DNA of 64,000 nucleotides from Acidimicrobiia bacterium (GCA_028284765.1 JANQRA010000002.1:101061-165060); one strand, 5' to 3'; positions 26,218 through 62,022 are shown, counted from the first letter of the stretch. A program made the numbers and translations. The notes: generated by a model not told the origin, from the sequence alone.

Positions 26218-29200
26218 CTAGCGGAAATCGCGAGAACGGATGGTTTGGACGCCGATCGGCTCGAAATCGCGGGCAACGATGTTGGTGACGCCGTCGTAGA
26301 ACTCCAGACGACCGTGGATGATGAGTGCCGGGCTCTTCCTGACCACATGCCTGTGTTTCGCCCAAACATCGGGAAGTACGACGATGTTGAGGAGACCTGT
26401 CTCGTCTTCGAGATTCAAGAAATAGACACCTTTCGCCGTGCCCGGTCGTTGACGATGGGTTATCACCCCCGCCACTTTGATCCGCGACTTGTTCCGTCCG
26501 ACCTCCAAGGCCTCGGCCGCGGTGAGACAGCCATCCAACTGATCCCTGACGAATCTCATCGGGTGGGAAGACGAAACCGATGTGGCCCAAAGGTCAGCCC
26601 GGTGCTCCTCTTCAGGAGACATACCCGGCAACTCGGGTGCTTCCACCCCTGGCGAAAGAGCCAGACGCTCAGGATCGATCTCAGCCAGGGCACCAGCAGC
26701 CCACATTCCCTCACGTCTGCCGAGACCCAGGGACTCCAGAGCACCCGCTCCAGCCAAACCCTCGAGTGAATCGACATCGAGTCCGGTACGTGCAGCCAGA
26801 TCTTCAGGAGATCTGAAATCACCGCCGAGAATCCGTGCTGCTTCGATCCGCGTCACCTCTTTCTCACCGAGATTGCGCACATATCGAAGTCCCATTCGAA
26901 CTCCGACTGCAGGTCTTATCGGATCGTCTACATGGCCCCGGCCTCTTCTCCAGGATTGACCTAGATAGGAGACGATGTCCGCGGGGTCAGCCTGTATCGG
27001 CTCAATGGTGCAGTCGTGCCATGAGAGATTCACGTCGGGGCCGAGGACCACAACTCCGTGTCGCTGCGCATCCTGCGTCAAAGAGTTGGGACTGTAGAAA
27101 CCCATTGGTTGGGCGTTGAGGAGGCCAGCAAGGAACTCCGCTGGATAGTGAAATCGCAGCCACGCTGACATGTAGACGATGTAAGCGAAGCTCACCGAAT
27201 GGCTCTCGGGAAAGCCGAAGCTTGCAAAACCCTGAAGTTTCTCCCATATCTCCTCGGCAGCCGCACCGACAATGCCGTTGTTCCTCATGCCCTCGAAGAC
27301 CTCATCTTTCAAACGCCCCATGGCCTCGTCTGAACGCTTGTGAGTCATCGCCTGCCGAAGGCGATCGGCTTGTGAACCGTTGAACCCGGCACAGATCCGA
27401 GCCAACTCCATGAGTTGTTCTTGAAAGATGGGGACACCGAGCGTCTTCTTGAGAACCACCTCGGTTGACGGGTGTGGATAGCGGACAGGTTCCTCGCCGT
27501 TGCGACGCCGCAGGTACGGATGAACCGAGCGACCTTGAATAGGCCCGGGACGAATGAGAGCTACCTCGACTGCCAGGTCATAGAAGGTCTTCGGCTTCAT
27601 CTTGGGAAGCGTGGCCATCTGAGCGCGTGATTCGATTTGGAACAGCCCAACGGTGTCGGCCCTGGTCATCGACTCATACAGAGCCGGCTCCTGAGGGATA
27701 CGGGCGAGGTCTATCTCGACACCATGGGCATCTTCGATCAAGTCAGTTGCCAGATGGAGCGCGTTGAGCATTCCGAGACCAAGTAGATCGAACTTCACGA
27801 TCCCAACGGCTGCAGAGTCGTCTTTGTCCCACTGAATAACCGTGCGACCTTCCATCCGCCCCCATTCGACTGGCACCACTTGCCACAGCGGACGATCGGC
27901 AATGACCATCCCACCCGAGTGGATTCCCAGATGTCGTGGATAGCCGTCGAGACGCCAGCAGATGTCGTAGATCATCTCGGCTGTCATTCCCTCGGGTAGT
28001 GACGTGTCCATGTCGCGCAGTTGTGCTGGATCGCGAGTGTCCACGTACTTGGAAAGACCGTCGACCTGAGCCTGAGTGAATCCAAAAGTCTTGGCGACAT
28101 CTCGCAAGACCGATCGCGCTCGATAGGTGACGACGTTGGCCACCATTGCCGCGCGCTCCCGGCCATAACGTCGATAGCAATACTGGATTACCTCTTCGCG
28201 ACGATCTGCCTCGAAGTCGACGTCAATGTCGGGTGGCTTGCCTCTCTCCTCGGACAGAAAACGCTCAAAAGGCAAATGAAGACGGATTGGGTCGACACGG
28301 GTGAGCCCGATGCAACGACAGACAGCCGAATCTGCACCCGACCCTCGTATCTGACAGTAGATGTCCTGTTCCCGCGCAAAATCGACGAGGTCCTTCACCA
28401 CCAAGAAGTAGCCGGCAAAACCGAGACGCTCGATGATGTCCAGCTCATGTTCGAGGCGACGCCTGGCGGCGGGTTCTATCCCATCTTCTGACCCCGGATA
28501 GACATCACGTGCCCCCTCCCAGGTGAGGTGTCTCAGATACTCCATCTCATCCCGGAAATGGCCTGGCATTGGGAAGTCGGGAAGCTGTGGTGCCACCAGG
28601 CCGAGGTCAAAGGCCAGCCTGCTTCCGATATCGGCAGCTCGGGTAACCACACCCGGATACCGGGCGAAGCGCACTGCCATCTCCGCAGGGTGTTTCAGAT
28701 ATCGCTCATCAGTTGCTGGCCGAAAACCGTCAGCCTCCGCAAGGGTTCGACGTCCGCCGATGGCGGCCAAAGCTTCCGACAGGTAGGCATCGCGACGATC
28801 GTGATAGTGGACCTGGTTGGTAGCCACAGTCGACACCCCGAGTTTCTGAGATACCTCCCACATCAGGTCGTTTCGCCCGTCGTCCTCTGGCATACCGTGA
28901 TGCCACAACTCCATGTGCAATCTCGTGCCAAAGATCTCACGCAATCGAGAGGTCTCACGCATCACCGCCGACAGGTCTCCCCGGACCGCTGCCTTGGGAA
29001 CAGCTCCGGCATGACACCCGGTCAAGACATGGACGTCTTTATTGGTTGCGGCTACCGCCAGGTCGTCCCACGAATAGATCGGGAGATCCTTCTCACCTCT
29101 CATCTGGGCTTTGGTGACGAGGTGAGAGAGTGTCCGATAGCCGCTGGGTGAACCAGCGAGAAGAACTAGATGGTCGGTCTCAGGGAGATCAGTTGGCTTC

Positions 29201-29580
29201 ACCCCGTGAGAGCGGACCGAACGCCCTCGACGCAGTCTCCCCTGGCCACCCTTGACACGTGCGTACCTCTGACGGTCCCACTCTTCAGCATCGGAGATGG
29301 GATCCCTTGACCCGGCCGGTGAGACCTCGAGTCCAATCTCTACCCCGTAGATCACGGGCAAACCCGTTGCCTTGGCAGCCTGCCATAGACGCGAAGTCCC
29401 ATAGAAGCCGTGGTGGTCGGTGACGGCCAGAGCCTCGTATCCCAACTCGATAGCGCGAACTACTAGATCCTCAGGATGTGATGCCCCGTCCAGGAACGAG
29501 AAGTTGGTGTGGCAATGAAGCTCGGCATAACGGTGACTCAGAGACACTGTCGGCACTATATCGAACATATGTTCGATCAC
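26218..29580 (-). CDS. dnaE2: Error-prone DNA polymerase DnaE2 (PHP + Pol III alpha core)
   Basis: 1120 aa, with the YAELHCHTNFSFLDGAS PHP N-terminus. An alternative ATG at 29566-29568 lies inside the LexA box. Confidence 0.9.
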   Translation of the reverse strand: MIEHMFDIVPTVSLSHRYAELHCHTNFSFLDGASHPEDLVVRAIELGYEALAVTDHHGFYGTSRLWQAAKATGLPVIYGVEIGLEVSPAGSRDPISDAEEWDRQRYARVKGGQGRLRRGRSVRSHGVKPTDLPETDHLVLLAGSPSGYRTLSHLVTKAQMRGEKDLPIYSWDDLAVAATNKDVHVLTGCHAGAVPKAAVRGDLSAVMRETSRLREIFGTRLHMELWHHGMPEDDGRNDLMWEVSQKLGVSTVATNQVHYHDRRDAYLSEALAAIGGRRTLAEADGFRPATDERYLKHPAEMAVRFARYPGVVTRAADIGSRLAFDLGLVAPQLPDFPMPGHFRDEMEYLRHLTWEGARDVYPGSEDGIEPAARRRLEHELDIIERLGFAGYFLVVKDLVDFAREQDIYCQIRGSGADSAVCRCIGLTRVDPIRLHLPFERFLSEERGKPPDIDVDFEADRREEVIQYCYRRYGRERAAMVANVVTYRARSVLRDVAKTFGFTQAQVDGLSKYVDTRDPAQLRDMDTSLPEGMTAEMIYDICWRLDGYPRHLGIHSGGMVIADRPLWQVVPVEWGRMEGRTVIQWDKDDSAAVGIVKFDLLGLGMLNALHLATDLIEDAHGVEIDLARIPQEPALYESMTRADTVGLFQIESRAQMATLPKMKPKTFYDLAVEVALIRPGPIQGRSVHPYLRRRNGEEPVRYPHPSTEVVLKKTLGVPIFQEQLMELARICAGFNGSQADRLRQAMTHKRSDEAMGRLKDEVFEGMRNNGIVGAAAEEIWEKLQGFASFGFPESHSVSFAYIVYMSAWLRFHYPAEFLAGLLNAQPMGFYSPNSLTQDAQRHGVVVLGPDVNLSWHDCTIEPIQADPADIVSYLGQSWRRGRGHVDDPIRPAVGVRMGLRYVRNLGEKEVTRIEAARILGGDFRSPEDLAARTGLDVDSLEGLAGAGALESLGLGRREGMWAAGALAEIDPERLALSPGVEAPELPGMSPEEEHRADLWATSVSSSHPMRFVRDQLDGCLTAAEALEVGRNKSRIKVAGVITHRQRPGTAKGVYFLNLEDETGLLNIVVLPDVWAKHRHVVRKSPALIIHGRLEFYDGVTNIVARDFEPIGVQTIRSRDFR
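29561..29576. promoter_or_regulatory. LexA (SOS/Cheo-type) box TCGAACATATGTTCGA overlapping the dnaE2 start
   Basis: A perfect GAAC-N4-GTTC palindrome. The 22-mer CGAACATATGTTCGATCACAAG is identical to the one upstream of imuA' at 61033-61054. Confidence 0.8.
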
Positions 29581-29595
29581 AAGAGGGCGCCGAAC

Positions 29596-30186
29596 TCAAC
29601 CGTTGGCCAAGACCCTCACTCTGCTCATCACTGATTCATACGTCGGGATAATGCGGATGTGAGGCTCGATTTCGTGCCGGCCCTGAAGCTGCAACTCGAC
29701 CTCCGACCAGTCGGCAGTCGCTAGCACCGCCAAGCACAATCGCACGGCCTCGCCATAAGTGACATCACTTCCATCCGTTGCCTGCGCAATTCGATCGACA
29801 ACGAGCGACTCTCTAGAGATGGCGGTGAGCTCATCGGAGGGCCCCAACCGAATCTGCATGGTCGTACCGTCAACCCTGGTGCCTGGAAACTCAACCAGCC
29901 AGACTTCACCGTCAGGCATCGTGTACTTGAAGTGGTCGCCTTGGACTTGAGCGAACCCGACGGCCTTCATTGACTCTCTGTCTTCTGCGTCCAGGTAGGC
30001 GCAGAGATCTACGTCAGTCGGTCGATATTGCTGCGTATGAAGATTCACCGCCGACCCCCCGACAAGAACGGCTCGATCTGTGATGGCATAGTCGGCAGCT
30101 TTGGCCAGCCAAACACTGCGCTCCGTCTCGTTCGAGGCTCGTTCAGCCTGCTTGATGGCATGGCGCGCTCGGTTCAGATCCGTCAT
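29596..30186 (-). CDS. Nucleotidyltransferase-fold protein (minimal NTase-like GS...DxD motif), 196 aa
   Basis: LVGGSAVNLHTQQYRPTDVDL fits hG[GS]-x(9-13)-DhD. 4-bp overlap with the upstream XRE gene. Its stop lies 15 bp from the dnaE2 start. Confidence 0.45.
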   Translation of the reverse strand: MTDLNRARHAIKQAERASNETERSVWLAKAADYAITDRAVLVGGSAVNLHTQQYRPTDVDLCAYLDAEDRESMKAVGFAQVQGDHFKYTMPDGEVWLVEFPGTRVDGTTMQIRLGPSDELTAISRESLVVDRIAQATDGSDVTYGEAVRLCLAVLATADWSEVELQLQGRHEIEPHIRIIPTYESVMSRVRVLANG

Positions 30187-30569
30187 AGGCGCGTGGCGAG
30201 CGCCTCGATCTCAGCGGTTGTGTCGATGCCGAGCTCAGACTTCCGGTTGAGCCTTTCTAGAGGATCGGACGGTTCCAAACCGGAACTAGCCAGGATCTGC
30301 GAAGCCTCAGAAGCCTGATCCATCAAGTTCCAAAGGCCGATGGACGCAGGAGCTCTCCTTTCCAGATCACTGAAAGATGCTCCATAACAAGTGAGGAGCC
30401 GCGCAACCGTGGACATCCTGGGGTCGACCTTTCCGTTCTCAACGTTCGATATCTGCGCTCGGCTGATGCCAGTCAGCTGGTACACATCACTGATGGTCAA
30501 GCGCTGTCTTTTCCTCAGATTGCGCAGCACGACACCGTTGAAGTAACTCACATGAGTTATCTTATCCAC
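30183..30569 (-). CDS. XRE-family (Cro/C1-type HTH) transcriptional regulator with a C-terminal extension
   Basis: LRNLRKRQRLTISDVYQLTGISRAQISNVENGK. GTG start. Confidence 0.7.
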   Translation of the reverse strand: MDKITHVSYFNGVVLRNLRKRQRLTISDVYQLTGISRAQISNVENGKVDPRMSTVARLLTCYGASFSDLERRAPASIGLWNLMDQASEASQILASSGLEPSDPLERLNRKSELGIDTTAEIEALATRL

Positions 30570-58929: not shown

Positions 58930-60408
58930 TCAGTCGTAGACACCAGCCAAGAAGGCTTTGCCTTGAGCCACCACACATAGAAACGCTCCGGCTGAAGTCA
59001 CGATCTGAAAGCGATCTGCGTCCTTCTCACCTGACCACCATCGACCACTCAGCCTCCACGGGCCACTCCACGTGAGAACCGGCTCCCATCTCGTCCCGAG
59101 ACGAATCCGCGACGGAAGCCCTTCATCCCATTCGATTTCGATAGGCCGTAGCTTCGAGTGGACCAGAGCGGGGGCAGGAGAGGGTGTCGCACCTGGCCAG
59201 GGAGCTTCTTCGTCACGTTCCGGTGAAACAGGCTCTTCACCCCATCGCGACCACGACACTTTCTCAGCAGGCATACGCCCACCCTGGGGAGCAGACTGGA
59301 GGACTGCGTCGGGACCAAGAAGTGCCTGGGCACGCACCAGAGCACGCTCGGTCTCAACAGCAGAGGACTCGTCGCTGAGCAAACCCATCTGACGGCCTTC
59401 GCCAGATAGATCATGTGGAGAGACTCTGAGTGCGGTAACTCCCCCCACCACTCCCGCTGTTTCAACCCAGGCACTCAACTGCCATCGAACCCGGTCGTAG
59501 AGAGCACGCTCGGTCAGAGGTTCCGCGGAGCGCCAAACTCGAACTCTCGGTTTTCCTGTCAGCGGAGTGGCCGCGATCTCAACGGCATGAGGAGCGACTC
59601 CGCTCGACCGCAGACGGGCCAGCAAACGCTCGACAATGTTCCGTCCCGCGAACAGCACGGCATCCATCGCCTCCAGAGGATCTTCGAACTCCATCGAAAC
59701 GGACAACTCTTGTGGGATATCTCTGGGGTCAAGCGCCCGATCCTCACCGCTGGCGAGGCGATGGGCGAGGATCCCTTGATTGCCAAACCTCGAAGCCAGC
59801 GTCTCTCGGGGGAGATTCGTGACTTCTCCAAGAGTCGATATCCCCAGCCATCGGAAAGTGTCGATCATCTCTGTGCCACCCATCGACTCACGCAGCGTCT
59901 CGAGATCGAGACGGGACAGAAAGCCAAGAGTGTCGTCAACGATGTTGGGGTGCCCTGGTTTGGCGACGGCTGCTGCCCAACGGGCAGCAAACGGCCCATC
60001 TGCGATGCCGACAAACTGAGGGGGCTCGGAATCAAGCTTCGTCAGCACACCATCGATGGTCGTCGCCAGCTTCTCCTCACCCCCGTAGTACCTGACTGCG
60101 CCGGCGACCGGCACGAAGAGCAACCCGGGCGAAACCACCTCCACCCTGGGCACCAGGTCTTCGACCGTAAGAACCACCTTCTCGAATCTCCGCGTCTCCT
60201 CTCCAAGGTCACGTATCAAGACCCTGGCGAAAGGCGCAAGGACTTCTGCTTCACGTCGCGGCATCCCCAACCGAACACCGGCTTCGAGCACATCGTCAGT
60301 CGCACCGGTGACACGCTCGTCGACTACGAGGACAGAGTCAGCTGACGAGACGTCCGGCCTGCCCAGTGACCACATCGGGTACCAGACGCAAAGGGCCCTT
60401 GCCTTCAT
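58930..60408 (-). CDS. imuB: ImuB (Y-family polymerase-like, catalytically inactive mutasome subunit)
   Basis: RALCVWYPMWSL... is the ImuB-type N-terminus. About 500 aa, immediately downstream of imuA'. The start is uncertain; the ORF-track start at 60444 and the later in-frame starts all overlap imuA'. Confidence 0.75.
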   Translation of the reverse strand: MKARALCVWYPMWSLGRPDVSSADSVLVVDERVTGATDDVLEAGVRLGMPRREAEVLAPFARVLIRDLGEETRRFEKVVLTVEDLVPRVEVVSPGLLFVPVAGAVRYYGGEEKLATTIDGVLTKLDSEPPQFVGIADGPFAARWAAAVAKPGHPNIVDDTLGFLSRLDLETLRESMGGTEMIDTFRWLGISTLGEVTNLPRETLASRFGNQGILAHRLASGEDRALDPRDIPQELSVSMEFEDPLEAMDAVLFAGRNIVERLLARLRSSGVAPHAVEIAATPLTGKPRVRVWRSAEPLTERALYDRVRWQLSAWVETAGVVGGVTALRVSPHDLSGEGRQMGLLSDESSAVETERALVRAQALLGPDAVLQSAPQGGRMPAEKVSWSRWGEEPVSPERDEEAPWPGATPSPAPALVHSKLRPIEIEWDEGLPSRIRLGTRWEPVLTWSGPWRLSGRWWSGEKDADRFQIVTSAGAFLCVVAQGKAFLAGVYD

Positions 60409-61021
60409 CTTCGACCTCAAAGCGCCGAGTAGCTCCCGACGCACCTTTTCCAGACGCTTCGACGACCAGGCGGCGCCTGGTCAACTTGCCATGACCTCGA
60501 TCAGCTCCCTCCCAGGTGACCCCCAACACTCTGAGCCGGACAAAGGCAACACCAGCTGGCAAACGACCTCCCATTGGTCTCATGGCGACTGCAACTCGTC
60601 GCGCACGGGCTATCGCCCCCAGCCTTCGCAACTCTCTTTCCTTGATGCCGGCGGGCACCTCTATGTACATCGCCTGCACACCTTCGAGAAGAGCTGACGC
60701 CACTTTGGGCCAGAGATGAGGTGAGCCACATCGGACCACGACCATGCGCTCCGAAACGACCCCCGTCTCCCATGCAGCCTCGGGTGAGATCAACCCTCTG
60801 CTGTCAACCACGACAACCGTGTGCGATCGAGAGAATGGTGCGAGTTGACCCAAACCCATCCGGGTCAGACCCGAGCCGGGATCACCCACCAGTTCAGTTA
60901 CCTGCCCCGATCGGAGCTGGAGCAGATCTCGCTGATCCCCCCACTCCACACCAGGTGAAGCGAGATCGATTTGACCGGTCGTTAGACCTTCGATGCCCAA
61001 AGTGACTCCAATTTCGGGCAA
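60338..61021 (-). CDS. imuA: ImuA' (RecA-fold SulA/ImuA-like mutasome subunit)
   Basis: 227 aa with ...VTELVGDPGSGLTRMGLGQL.. (a degenerate P-loop). It is preceded by a LexA box and followed by imuB. Confidence 0.65.
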   Translation of the reverse strand: MPEIGVTLGIEGLTTGQIDLASPGVEWGDQRDLLQLRSGQVTELVGDPGSGLTRMGLGQLAPFSRSHTVVVVDSRGLISPEAAWETGVVSERMVVVRCGSPHLWPKVASALLEGVQAMYIEVPAGIKERELRRLGAIARARRVAVAMRPMGGRLPAGVAFVRLRVLGVTWEGADRGHGKLTRRRLVVEASGKGASGATRRFEVEDEGKGPLRLVPDVVTGQAGRLVS

Positions 61022-61030
61022 TCCATCATA

Positions 61031-61046
61031 CCGAACATATGTTCGA
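61031..61046. promoter_or_regulatory. LexA (SOS/Cheo-type) box CCGAACATATGTTCGA 10 bp upstream of the imuA' start
   Basis: GAAC-N4-GTTC. The 22-mer is identical to the one at dnaE2. Confidence 0.8.
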
Positions 61047-61117
61047 TCACAAGTAGTGATGCCCGAAGCGCGAAAACCCGCTCTCTAGAATCGAATCGAC
61101 CTTCGAGGAGAACACAC

Positions 61118-61570
61118 TTGACCGACGAATACGGCGTCCCTGAACTGCCCGAGGACGAAAAGGCACTACCCGAGATCCAGGATGAGCACGACGATCAATC
61201 GGTGCTCGAAGGAGCCGGAGACTTCACCAGCGGAGAAGGCTTGGTCGCCTTTGCCGGCATGATCCTCATCGCGGTCTGGATCATCTTCGACCTCTTGATC
61301 AACAACTACGGCATGGACAACACCATTGCCGTCATTGCCTCACTGGCTGTGATACTCCCCCGGCTGGACCGTGAGAAACTAGAAAAGATCCAGCGTCTGC
61401 CCGTCCTCATGAAGATCGTCGGATGGGCTCTCGCCATATTCGGATTGATCGAGTTCGCCACTGATGTGCGTGGCGGTCAACTCGATGAGTTCGGAATTGT
61501 CATTGCGGCCCTCATCGCATACGCCGCCTACGTCATGGCATTCATAGGTGCCCGCCAGATCGAGATTTAA
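61118..61570 (+). CDS. Hypothetical membrane protein (acidic N-terminus, 3-4 TM)
   Basis: TTG start. Divergent from imuA'. Confidence 0.4.
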   Translation: MTDEYGVPELPEDEKALPEIQDEHDDQSVLEGAGDFTSGEGLVAFAGMILIAVWIIFDLLINNYGMDNTIAVIASLAVILPRLDREKLEKIQRLPVLMKIVGWALAIFGLIEFATDVRGGQLDEFGIVIAALIAYAAYVMAFIGARQIEI

Positions 61571-61650: not shown

Positions 61651-62022
61651 ATGCCGCGAATACTCGTCGCTGACGACACAGAGACCATCAGGATGTTGTT
61701 GTCCGTAGCCCTCCAAGCTGAGGGCTACTCAGTCGTGACAGCCCCCAACGGATCTGAGGCGTACTCCACCGGCATCGAACAAAAGATCGACCTGGCGATC
61801 CTCGACCATCTGATGCCCGGACTCCTGGGGCTAGAGGTACTCGAAAAGTGGGTCGCGGAAGGAATCACTTTCCCGGTGATAATGCTCAGCGGAGTCGACG
61901 AAGAGGCAACAGTCCTCGAGTGTCTTCGGATGGGCGCGACCGACTTCGTTCGAAAGCCGTTTCGCGTAAACGAACTGATCGCTCGCATCTCCCTAGCCCT
62001 GAGTCGCCAACACTCAATCTGA
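61651..62022 (+). CDS. Single-domain response regulator (CheY-like receiver)
   Basis: ILVADDTETIRMLL...DLAILDHLMPGLLG...ATDFVRKPF. Confidence 0.85.
   Translation: MPRILVADDTETIRMLLSVALQAEGYSVVTAPNGSEAYSTGIEQKIDLAILDHLMPGLLGLEVLEKWVAEGITFPVIMLSGVDEEATVLECLRMGATDFVRKPFRVNELIARISLALSRQHSI

Follow-up and report, generated by a model that had tools for sequence, protein, structure and literature searches.

Predicted LexA-repressed promoters of one design upstream of dnaE2 and imuA'-imuB in an uncultured Acidimicrobiia bacterium

The window, that is, the whole 64,000-nt stretch of DNA analysed (G+C content of about 60%), carries the genes dnaE2, imuA' and imuB, all of which are located on the minus strand, with predicted LexA boxes upstream of dnaE2 and of imuA'-imuB. 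The homologues of ImuA' and DnaE2 that were found all belong to uncultured Acidimicrobiia (Actinomycetota), represented by MAGs and metagenomes. A search for RNA elements returned no Rfam families and no tRNAs in the window, and a known RNA element at the two sites was rejected as a candidate on the former ground.

The dnaE2 gene (26218..29547, minus strand) is predicted to encode a protein of 1109 aa starting with GTG at 29547-29545. The open reading frame at this locus (26218-29580, minus strand) is assigned to error-prone DNA polymerases by the NF004225 model (1262 bits, with a cut-off of 939), and its product contains the full set of Pfam domains, namely, PHP, DNA_pol3_alpha, finger, HHH_6 and OB. 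The imuA' gene (60338..61000, minus strand) codes for a protein of 220 aa with a TTG start codon at 61000, and a 220-aa database protein (P0001) is 100% identical to it. The corresponding open reading frame (60338-61021, minus strand) matches the ImuA' model NF058630 with E=2.7e-13 and 50 bits, which is below the 65-bit cut-off. A Pfam search with the window's ImuA' gave no match, and homologues at 61-100% identity have a precomputed assignment to PF27531 (MT3502_N). The N-terminus of the protein, MGIEG, is conserved in relatives.

The imuB gene (58930..60375, minus strand) probably starts at ATG 60375 and overlaps imuA' by 38 nt, the longest open reading frame extending to 60444. The product of 58930-60444 (minus strand) is a Y-family, IMS-like protein in which the IMS domain scores 26 bits, far under all Pol IV cut-offs; judged from the sequence, such low scores are as expected for ImuB, a protein with the Y-family fold but without catalysis. 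Its N-terminus, MWSLGRPDV, agrees with the gene call in a close relative (locus L163). The identities of the three genes given in the original prediction hold, those of imuA' and imuB as probable assignments, with the ImuA' match lying below the curated cut-off.

The imuA' gene is preceded by a short 5' leader (61001..61024, minus strand), in which the segment GGAtTGCCCGA is conserved and a GGAG Shine-Dalgarno sequence (61006-61009) is positioned 5 nt ahead of the TTG codon. The block TGGAGyGCCCGA...GGAGTCAGtTTGG downstream of the imuA' promoter is conserved across 73 loci, and relatives also retain the leader, the GGAG sequence and the start at TTG. The imuA'-imuB transcript would begin with this leader of about 20 nt and would be translated from the TTG codon with the help of the GGAG ribosome site.

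The predicted LexA operator of dnaE2 (29561..29576), TCGAACATATGTTCGA, is a perfect 16-bp palindrome of the actinobacterial/Cheo type with no mismatches to TCGAAC-N4-GTTCGA, in agreement with the original prediction of a perfect Cheo-type LexA box at this position. The predicted operator of imuA' (61031..61046), which reads TCGAACATATGTTCGG on the gene strand, has a single mismatch at the last base (CCGAAC on the plus strand). An extended 22-mer, CGAACATATGTTCGATCACAAG, is present in exactly two copies in the window, at 29562-29583 and 61032-61053, while none is expected from 100 shuffles; its exact recurrence in front of imuA'-imuB had been predicted correctly, although with coordinates (61033-61054) that were off by one. 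The 22-mer is composed of 15 near-consensus operator bases, an A at position -1, and the -35 hexamer described below with one preceding C. Within the 64 kb, GAAC-N4-GTTC cores occur only at the dnaE2 and imuA' boxes. Since 1.2 such bare 12-mers are expected by chance versus the two seen, the core as such is not rarer than chance, and the significance comes from the full 16-mer and 22-mer and from their position. The two boxes are 31,470 nt apart, and the predicted split of the mutasome into imuA'-imuB and dnaE2 loci, as in mycobacteria, was supported. In a tblastn search of the window and of 166 loci, no match to lexA was found, which is a weak negative result obtained with an approximate sequence of E. 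coli LexA as the query.

When read on the gene strand, the two sites share one layout, with cTTGTGA followed by TCGAACATATGTTCGr and then by TATAGT or TATGAT. The dnaE2 promoter reads ccctCTTGTGA TCGAACATATGTTCGA TATAGT gccgaca GTG and comprises a -35 hexamer TTGTGA (29577..29582, minus strand), the operator, and a -10 hexamer TATAGT (29555..29560, minus strand) that abuts the LexA box. The imuA' promoter reads actaCTTGTGA TCGAACATATGTTCGG TATGAT ggattgcccgaaattGGAGtcactTTG, with the -35 hexamer TTGTGA at 61047..61052, preceded by C at 61053, and the -10 hexamer TATGAT at 61025..61030 (minus strand). These hexamers were recognised in an independent consensus promoter scan, which found exactly one promoter-like site per 500-nt region, TTGTGA-16-TATAGT and TTGTGA-16-TATGAT, respectively, where about 0.2 are expected by chance. 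At both promoters a TAnnnT -10 element and a TTGnnn -35 element are separated by 16 nt, within the 16-18 nt range of sigma-70-type promoters, and the operator occupies the whole spacer. The hexamer positions, like the sequences, the gene identities and the conservation patterns described here, are direct observations. When 260 nt around each site were aligned, no similarity was detected outside the block cTTGTGA-box-TAT..T, and a recent segmental duplication is excluded because the two upstream regions fail to align beyond this block.

The shared sequence beside the LexA core, ATCACAAG, was regarded in the original prediction as not explained by LexA binding alone, and its conservation in relatives would have been taken to point to another regulator or to duplication of the promoter. 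Read in the direction of the genes, it is the TTGTGA hexamer which, together with the C at 29583, reads cTTGTGA and lies exactly 16 nt from the -10. Judged from its sequence and spacing, the flank at both loci is a -35 hexamer plus one base, and neither of these two assumptions is needed. Both sites can accordingly be described, with a probability of about 0.8, as LexA-repressed sigma-70-type (housekeeping) promoters of one design.

The LexA box had been thought to overlap the dnaE2 start, for which GTG 29580 and ATG 29568 were the candidate codons. Both are in-frame codons of the longest open reading frame, but GTG 29580 falls within the -35 hexamer and ATG 29568 belongs to CATATG, the centre of the palindrome, and they are artefacts of these two elements rather than real starts. 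The DnaE2 proteins of relatives begin 2-5 residues ahead of the motif YAELHCH, and position 4 of the NF004225 profile aligns to residue 16 of the long dnaE2 open reading frame; both lines of evidence point to GTG 29547 as the true start, so that the box does not overlap it. In several database DnaE2 proteins the first residues are IEHMFD or MFD, a translation of the LexA box, and a 1120-aa NCBI entry (P0241) is identical to the product of the window's long open reading frame. Many database DnaE2 entries, including the 1120-aa one, would thus be too long, with the translated LexA box as their N-termini.

The GTG codon at 29547 lies only 7 nt downstream of TATAGT, which leaves no room for a Shine-Dalgarno sequence. 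In 35 of 46 dnaE2 loci the first in-frame ATG or GTG is likewise found 6-7 nt past the box-adjacent -10 element, a peak that was counted as the first in-frame start after the -10 and hence somewhat favours short distances. With a start codon this close to the -10 and no space for a ribosome-binding site, dnaE2 looks leaderless, and its mRNA is probably translated directly from GTG 29547.

Conservation was compared over about 130 related imuA' and dnaE2 loci, the counts of which do not represent independent events because the relatives share ancestry. For imuA', the comparison included 80 species-representative Acidimicrobiia genomes and was anchored on the ImuA' protein rather than on the motif. 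A box with no more than one mismatch is located within 350 nt of imuA' in 75 of the 80 genome loci; the remaining five are cut by contig ends, or have no such box in the short upstream stretch covered. Addition of the two closest relatives, L162 and L163, gave 77 imuA' loci, among which the box is perfect in 66 and N4 is ATAT in 63. The TAnnnT element adjoins the box in all 77 loci, and TTG is present at a spacer of 16-18 nt in 64. The -35 element varies, with TTGCTA in 13 loci, TTTACA in 11, TTGCCA in 7, TTGTCA in 6 and TTGTGA in 3, and it is sometimes displaced by 1-2 nt among relatives. Of 73 loci, 68 have retained the T at -6, and positions -20 to -12 hold no information. This variation and shifting of the hexamer indicate a -35 element, not a fixed second operator. 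In loci L162 and L163, where ImuA' is 78-82% identical, the sequence ccaCTTGTGA-TCGAACATATGTTCGG-TATGAT of the window recurs unchanged, the final G included. The A at -1 is conserved in both gene families (information content of 0.97 and 0.70) and probably extends the palindrome to ATCGAAC...GTTCGAT (18 bp).

Outside the imuA' promoter, eight boxes with no more than one mismatch were found in imuA' loci totalling about 1.2 Mb, and four of these precede DUF222/HNH genes. No dnaE2 gene was found within 10 kb of imuA' in the loci of the 80 relatives. The motif TGTCGG, the core of the PafBC site, was observed 21 times within 300 nt of 74 imuA' boxes versus 29 expected, and a PafBC-type regulator was rejected in view of this lack of enrichment; the lone TGTCGG near dnaE2 is antisense and not conserved. 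A CRP-like site was also rejected, as the TGTGA of the flank has no TCACA half-site at a distance of 6 nt.

The dnaE2 loci were obtained from a metagenome scan and individual look-ups. In 50 loci of the clade with a short DnaE2 N-terminus the box is found at the same place, 17-33 nt (most often 22 nt) ahead of the Y codon of YAELHCH, and it is perfect in 37. A TAnnnT element, mostly TATAGT or TAGAGT, adjoins the box in 45 of the 50 loci, while TTG at a spacer of 16-18 nt is present in only four, and the flank is free of information except for the A at -1. The -35 element is therefore dispensable for this promoter, being absent from 46 of the 50 loci of the wider clade. A DnaE2 search with a 300-aa N-terminal query had returned only fragments of up to 521 aa, the closest relatives not being among them, and a search with the full-length protein revealed closer relatives at 89-90% identity. 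Their promoters read ctctCTTGTGA-box-TATAGT (L167), TTTGGCA-box-TAGAGT (L168) and CTTGCGA-box-TAGAGT (L170), and the -35 element is absent in L169. As far as these sequences go, a TTGnnA -35 at a spacer of 16 nt is a feature of the narrow subclade to which the window belongs, with the middle bases free to vary. An XRE/NTase-like gene pair upstream of dnaE2 was considered as the source of the -35 element and rejected, since L167 lacks this insertion and has the same CTTGTGA.

The two promoters were also compared in pairs from the same genome. Three of five pairs (L029/L164, L066/L161 and L012/L171) have different flanks, and the first two of these also have a different N4; on this comparison, the 22-mer is not generally the same at both loci of a genome. 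Loci L167 (dnaE2) and L163 (imuA') originate from the same metagenome sample, ERZ25072999, and both have CTTGTGA, so that the 22-mer is probably identical at the two loci of this organism too, if L163 and L167 represent one organism. The window, and probably the ERZ25072999 organism, thus show identity of flank and operator, which is absent in three more distant genomes. The proposed coordination of the two loci by identical operators is supported insofar as both operators are near-consensus (0 and 1 mismatch), but their identity together with the flank does not extend to most of the pairs. The distance between imuA' and dnaE2 is 31.5 kb in the window and 19.6 and 29.3 kb in two relatives.

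Promoter function alone does not fully account for the dnaE2 and imuA' hexamers being exactly the same in this genome. It is possible, though unlikely, that the 22-nt identity was produced by copying between the loci, either as a gene-conversion patch or as a duplicated promoter module, and that the -35 element of dnaE2 was imported from imuA'. Such copying would be consistent with the absence of the -35 from dnaE2 promoters outside the narrow subclade and its clade-wide presence at imuA', with the occurrence of CTTGTGA at imuA' within the window's own subclade (L162 and L163), with the resemblance of the dnaE2 upstream sequence CCCTCTTG to the imuA' family consensus CCcTCTTG, and with the identical flanks, seen in the window and probably also in the organism of ERZ25072999. 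However, the sequences cease to match at -8 and share no homology further upstream on which a conversion tract could be anchored, and the last base of the box and the -10 element are typical of their loci, namely, A with TATAGT at dnaE2 and G with TATGAT at imuA'. Moreover, sister sequences at 90% identity have TTGGCA and TTGCGA, as expected of point mutation under selection for a -35 element. Given TTGnnA, only about three free positions must coincide (roughly 1/64), and the case was picked in the original prediction for its identity.

A concerted evolution of the promoter-operator cassette may also be envisaged, in which the 22-nt unit of -35 and operator would be kept identical within a genome by selection for equal competition between LexA and RNA polymerase, or by gene conversion of short patches over a distance of 31 kb. 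If this were true, a single, exactly shared threshold of damage would apply to the release of the three mutasome subunits; we consider it improbable.

It is very unlikely that the identity of the flanks is a coincidence without function, in which TTGTGA would be neutral and both promoters would work by the -10 element alone, as many actinobacterial promoters do. Most dnaE2 relatives indeed keep the box and the -10 without a recognisable -35, but at imuA' the T at -6 (68/73) and TTG (64/77) stand out against the lack of information at -20 to -12, two organisms have kept CTTGTGA at both loci although the sequence next to it upstream has diverged, and the probability of a chance match of 7 nt is about 6e-5. 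Very unlikely as well is the reading of the flank as an extended operator or as the site of a second regulator, such as a PafBC-like activator or a CRP-like protein recognising a TGTGA half-site, by which the loci would be tied by more than LexA: the 7-nt flank is identical at both window loci, and probably in the L163/L167 organism, and conservation of the A at -1 extends to promoters that lack the -35, but among relatives, where conservation of the flank had been proposed as a check, it is no fixed word, varying as TTGnnA at imuA' and being absent at 46 of the 50 dnaE2 promoters, the two candidate motifs failed as described above, and the mycobacterial PafBC site is not adjacent to the LexA site (PMC8682763).

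The preferred reading is thus that of two housekeeping promoters of one design, each repressed by LexA. By occupying the spacer, between the two contacts of sigma, a dimer of LexA would deny RNA polymerase access to both promoters. Upon DNA damage, RecA-stimulated self-cleavage of LexA would free dnaE2 and imuA'-imuB together, and the three mutasome subunits would then appear together. Co-regulation by LexA is the natural inference from the near-consensus operators at both loci, and their perfect or near-perfect sequences imply tight repression, as for the top LexA ChIP peaks at the M. tuberculosis orthologues. This steric mechanism, as well as LexA binding, the transcription starts and leaderless translation, is deduced from the sequence and from knowledge of LexA. 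The flank puzzle thus has an ordinary answer, and its scientific value is modest. At the same time, the conserved design may be used for the prediction of SOS regulons and start codons in these genomes.

In E. coli, the mutagenic polymerase encoded by umuDC is controlled by a strong LexA operator that overlaps the promoter, which would result in tight repression and late induction. The umuDC promoter, with its strong overlapping operator, may be regarded as a functional analogue of the window's mutasome promoters, although the polymerase belongs to an unrelated family (Pol V) and the LexA motif is different (CTGT-N8-ACAG). Graded SOS induction has been discussed (PMC9380542).

The Cheo box of B. 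subtilis, the operator of DinR (LexA) with the sequence CGAAC-N4-GTTCG, has the GAAC-N4-GTTC core in common with the window's boxes, and it was through similarity to the B. subtilis motif that the mycobacterial motif was recognised (PMC3381160). The actinobacterial site differs in being a 16-bp form with flanking T/A, and in the present case it is probably an 18-bp ATCGAAC..GTTCGAT palindrome. B. subtilis is not known to have an imuA'-imuB-dnaE2 mutasome.

In Streptomyces venezuelae, dnaE2 belongs to the core targets of LexA, its SOS boxes are bound tightly, and the site was annotated as 'intragenic' (PMC9380542); the window's dnaE2 resembles it as a predicted LexA target with an apparently intragenic site. 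Unlike the single perfect box that abuts the -10 element in the window, the Streptomyces gene is preceded by two or three degenerate boxes, located some 68 nt ahead of the predicted start, and it is paired with dinP.

The closest parallels are found in M. tuberculosis, where Rv3395c (imuA') and Rv3394c (imuB) form an overlapping operon, dnaE2 (Rv3370c) is encoded separately, and the genes are LexA-regulated; the same three genes, imuA' and imuB by probable assignment, are present in the window, on the same strand and in the same order, with 31.5 kb between the boxes versus about 26.8 kb between the LexA ChIP peaks. The consensus TCGAAC(N4)GTTCGA was defined experimentally in M. tuberculosis (PMC3381160), and the window's operators deviate from it by 0-1 mismatches. 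The M. tuberculosis sites are among the strongest LexA sites of its genome, Rv3395c being the top peak in LexA ChIP-seq and dnaE2 the fifth (PMC3381160). LexA boxes that seemed to lie inside open reading frames were traced there to mis-annotated starts (PMC3381160), as is apparently the case at the window's dnaE2, and for several of the LexA-regulated genes translation starts at the transcription start (PMC3381160).

The two systems differ in that the imuA' transcription start of M. tuberculosis lies inside the SOS box, whereas in the window the box fills the spacer between the -35 and -10 elements. In mycobacteria imuA'/B is co-regulated by PafBC through a TGTCGG-core site located 166 nt from the LexA box (PMC8682763), while no PafBC-like motif was found here. 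DnaE2 has a short N-terminus in the window and is probably translated without a leader, while more distant DnaE2 proteins (40-46% identity) are extended at the N-terminus by about 70 residues, the box lying immediately ahead of this extension. Finally, the host is an uncultured Acidimicrobiia bacterium, outside Mycobacteriales. In the clade studied the design appears compact, the operator representing the whole spacer at imuA' and abutting the -10 element of a putatively leaderless dnaE2. On the sequence evidence, the window's system is a mycobacterial-type split mutasome in another actinobacterial class, apparently controlled by an ordinary SOS switch, so that the predicted LexA control of the split ImuA'-ImuB/DnaE2 system would extend from mycobacteria to uncultured Acidimicrobiia, with gene order, strand and a spacing of about 20-31 kb being kept.

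The genes imuA'-imuB are followed by dnaE2 on the same strand, at a spacing of 20-31 kb, in three Acidimicrobiia genomes: the distance is 31.5 kb in the window (29561 to 61046), 19.6 kb between the imuA' and dnaE2 loci of a second genome (L012 and L171), and 29.3 kb between those of a third (L066 and L161). The intervening region of the window is occupied by housekeeping genes, which comprise those for a sulfatase, MgsA/RarA, a class I tRNA synthetase and an IcmF-like mutase, and a MoxR/DUF58/BatA-VWA operon.

Conservation at imuA' runs well past the promoter into the leader (60998-61024, minus strand), where the sequence is conserved as TGGAGyGCCCGA...GGAGTCAGtTTGG among the window and the related imuA'-anchored loci L001-L080. 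The GCCCGA block lies just 3' of the expected transcription start, and the TTG start codon of imuA' falls within the conserved leader block. At dnaE2, database gene calls often begin too early, so that the LexA box is translated as IEHMFD or MFD; such calls (window 29545-29580, minus strand) are represented by the database proteins P0241, P0124, P0132, P0147 and P0165, and include a 1120-aa NCBI entry identical to the long ORF of the window.

With up to two mismatches allowed, the LexA box TCGAAC-N4-GTTCGA is matched 17 times in the window, versus 4.7 matches expected from dinucleotide shuffles. The excess concerns the matches with exactly two mismatches, nearly all of which have a broken GAAC/GTTC core or lie within coding sequence. 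A site with one mismatch (61775-61790, GATC for GTTC) is located within the response-regulator ORF. The surplus of degenerate matches is probably an effect of codon usage or TCGA composition.

Immediately 5' of dnaE2, and on the same strand, the window carries a gene pair (29596-30569, minus strand). One gene (30183-30569) encodes an XRE-type HTH protein, matched by HTH_31 at 49 bits; the product of the other (29596-30186) is 196 aa long and has a nucleotidyltransferase-like motif, but only a weak PADLOC match to AbiEii was obtained for it (E=0.003). The pair resembles a toxin-antitoxin or abortive-infection module and was found in none of the 84 related dnaE2 loci compared. In its place, the related dnaE2 locus L167 has an alpha/beta-hydrolase gene directly divergent from dnaE2, L171 contains an RHH+PIN (VapBC-like) pair, and other relatives carry a Peptidase_M15_4 gene. 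Given this variable gene content, the position just 5' of the dnaE2 promoter seems to be an insertion hot spot.

Four relatives also have perfect LexA boxes 5' of genes that encode DUF222+HNH endonucleases and lie about 5 kb from imuA' (L070:15266-15281, L071:13332, L077:13013 and L079:14228). These boxes are not followed by TAnnnT, and the promoter layout is thus unlike that of imuA' and dnaE2. A further DUF222/HNH gene is located 3' of dnaE2 (L161:6386-7035). These genes are reminiscent of the REP13E12-type genes of M. tuberculosis, which are inducible by DNA damage.

On the divergent side of imuA', the window encodes a predicted membrane protein of 150 aa that matches no family (61118-61570, plus strand) and a stand-alone response-regulator receiver protein (61651-62022, plus strand), both of which are kept beside imuA' in about 22 related loci. 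The M. tuberculosis gene rv3395a, whose function is unknown, likewise lies divergent from imuA' (PMC8682763). The M. tuberculosis genome also matches the three Acidimicrobiia genomes in the order of imuA'-imuB and dnaE2, in their shared strand and in their spacing, with about 26.8 kb separating the LexA ChIP peaks of imuA' and dnaE2 (PMC3381160).
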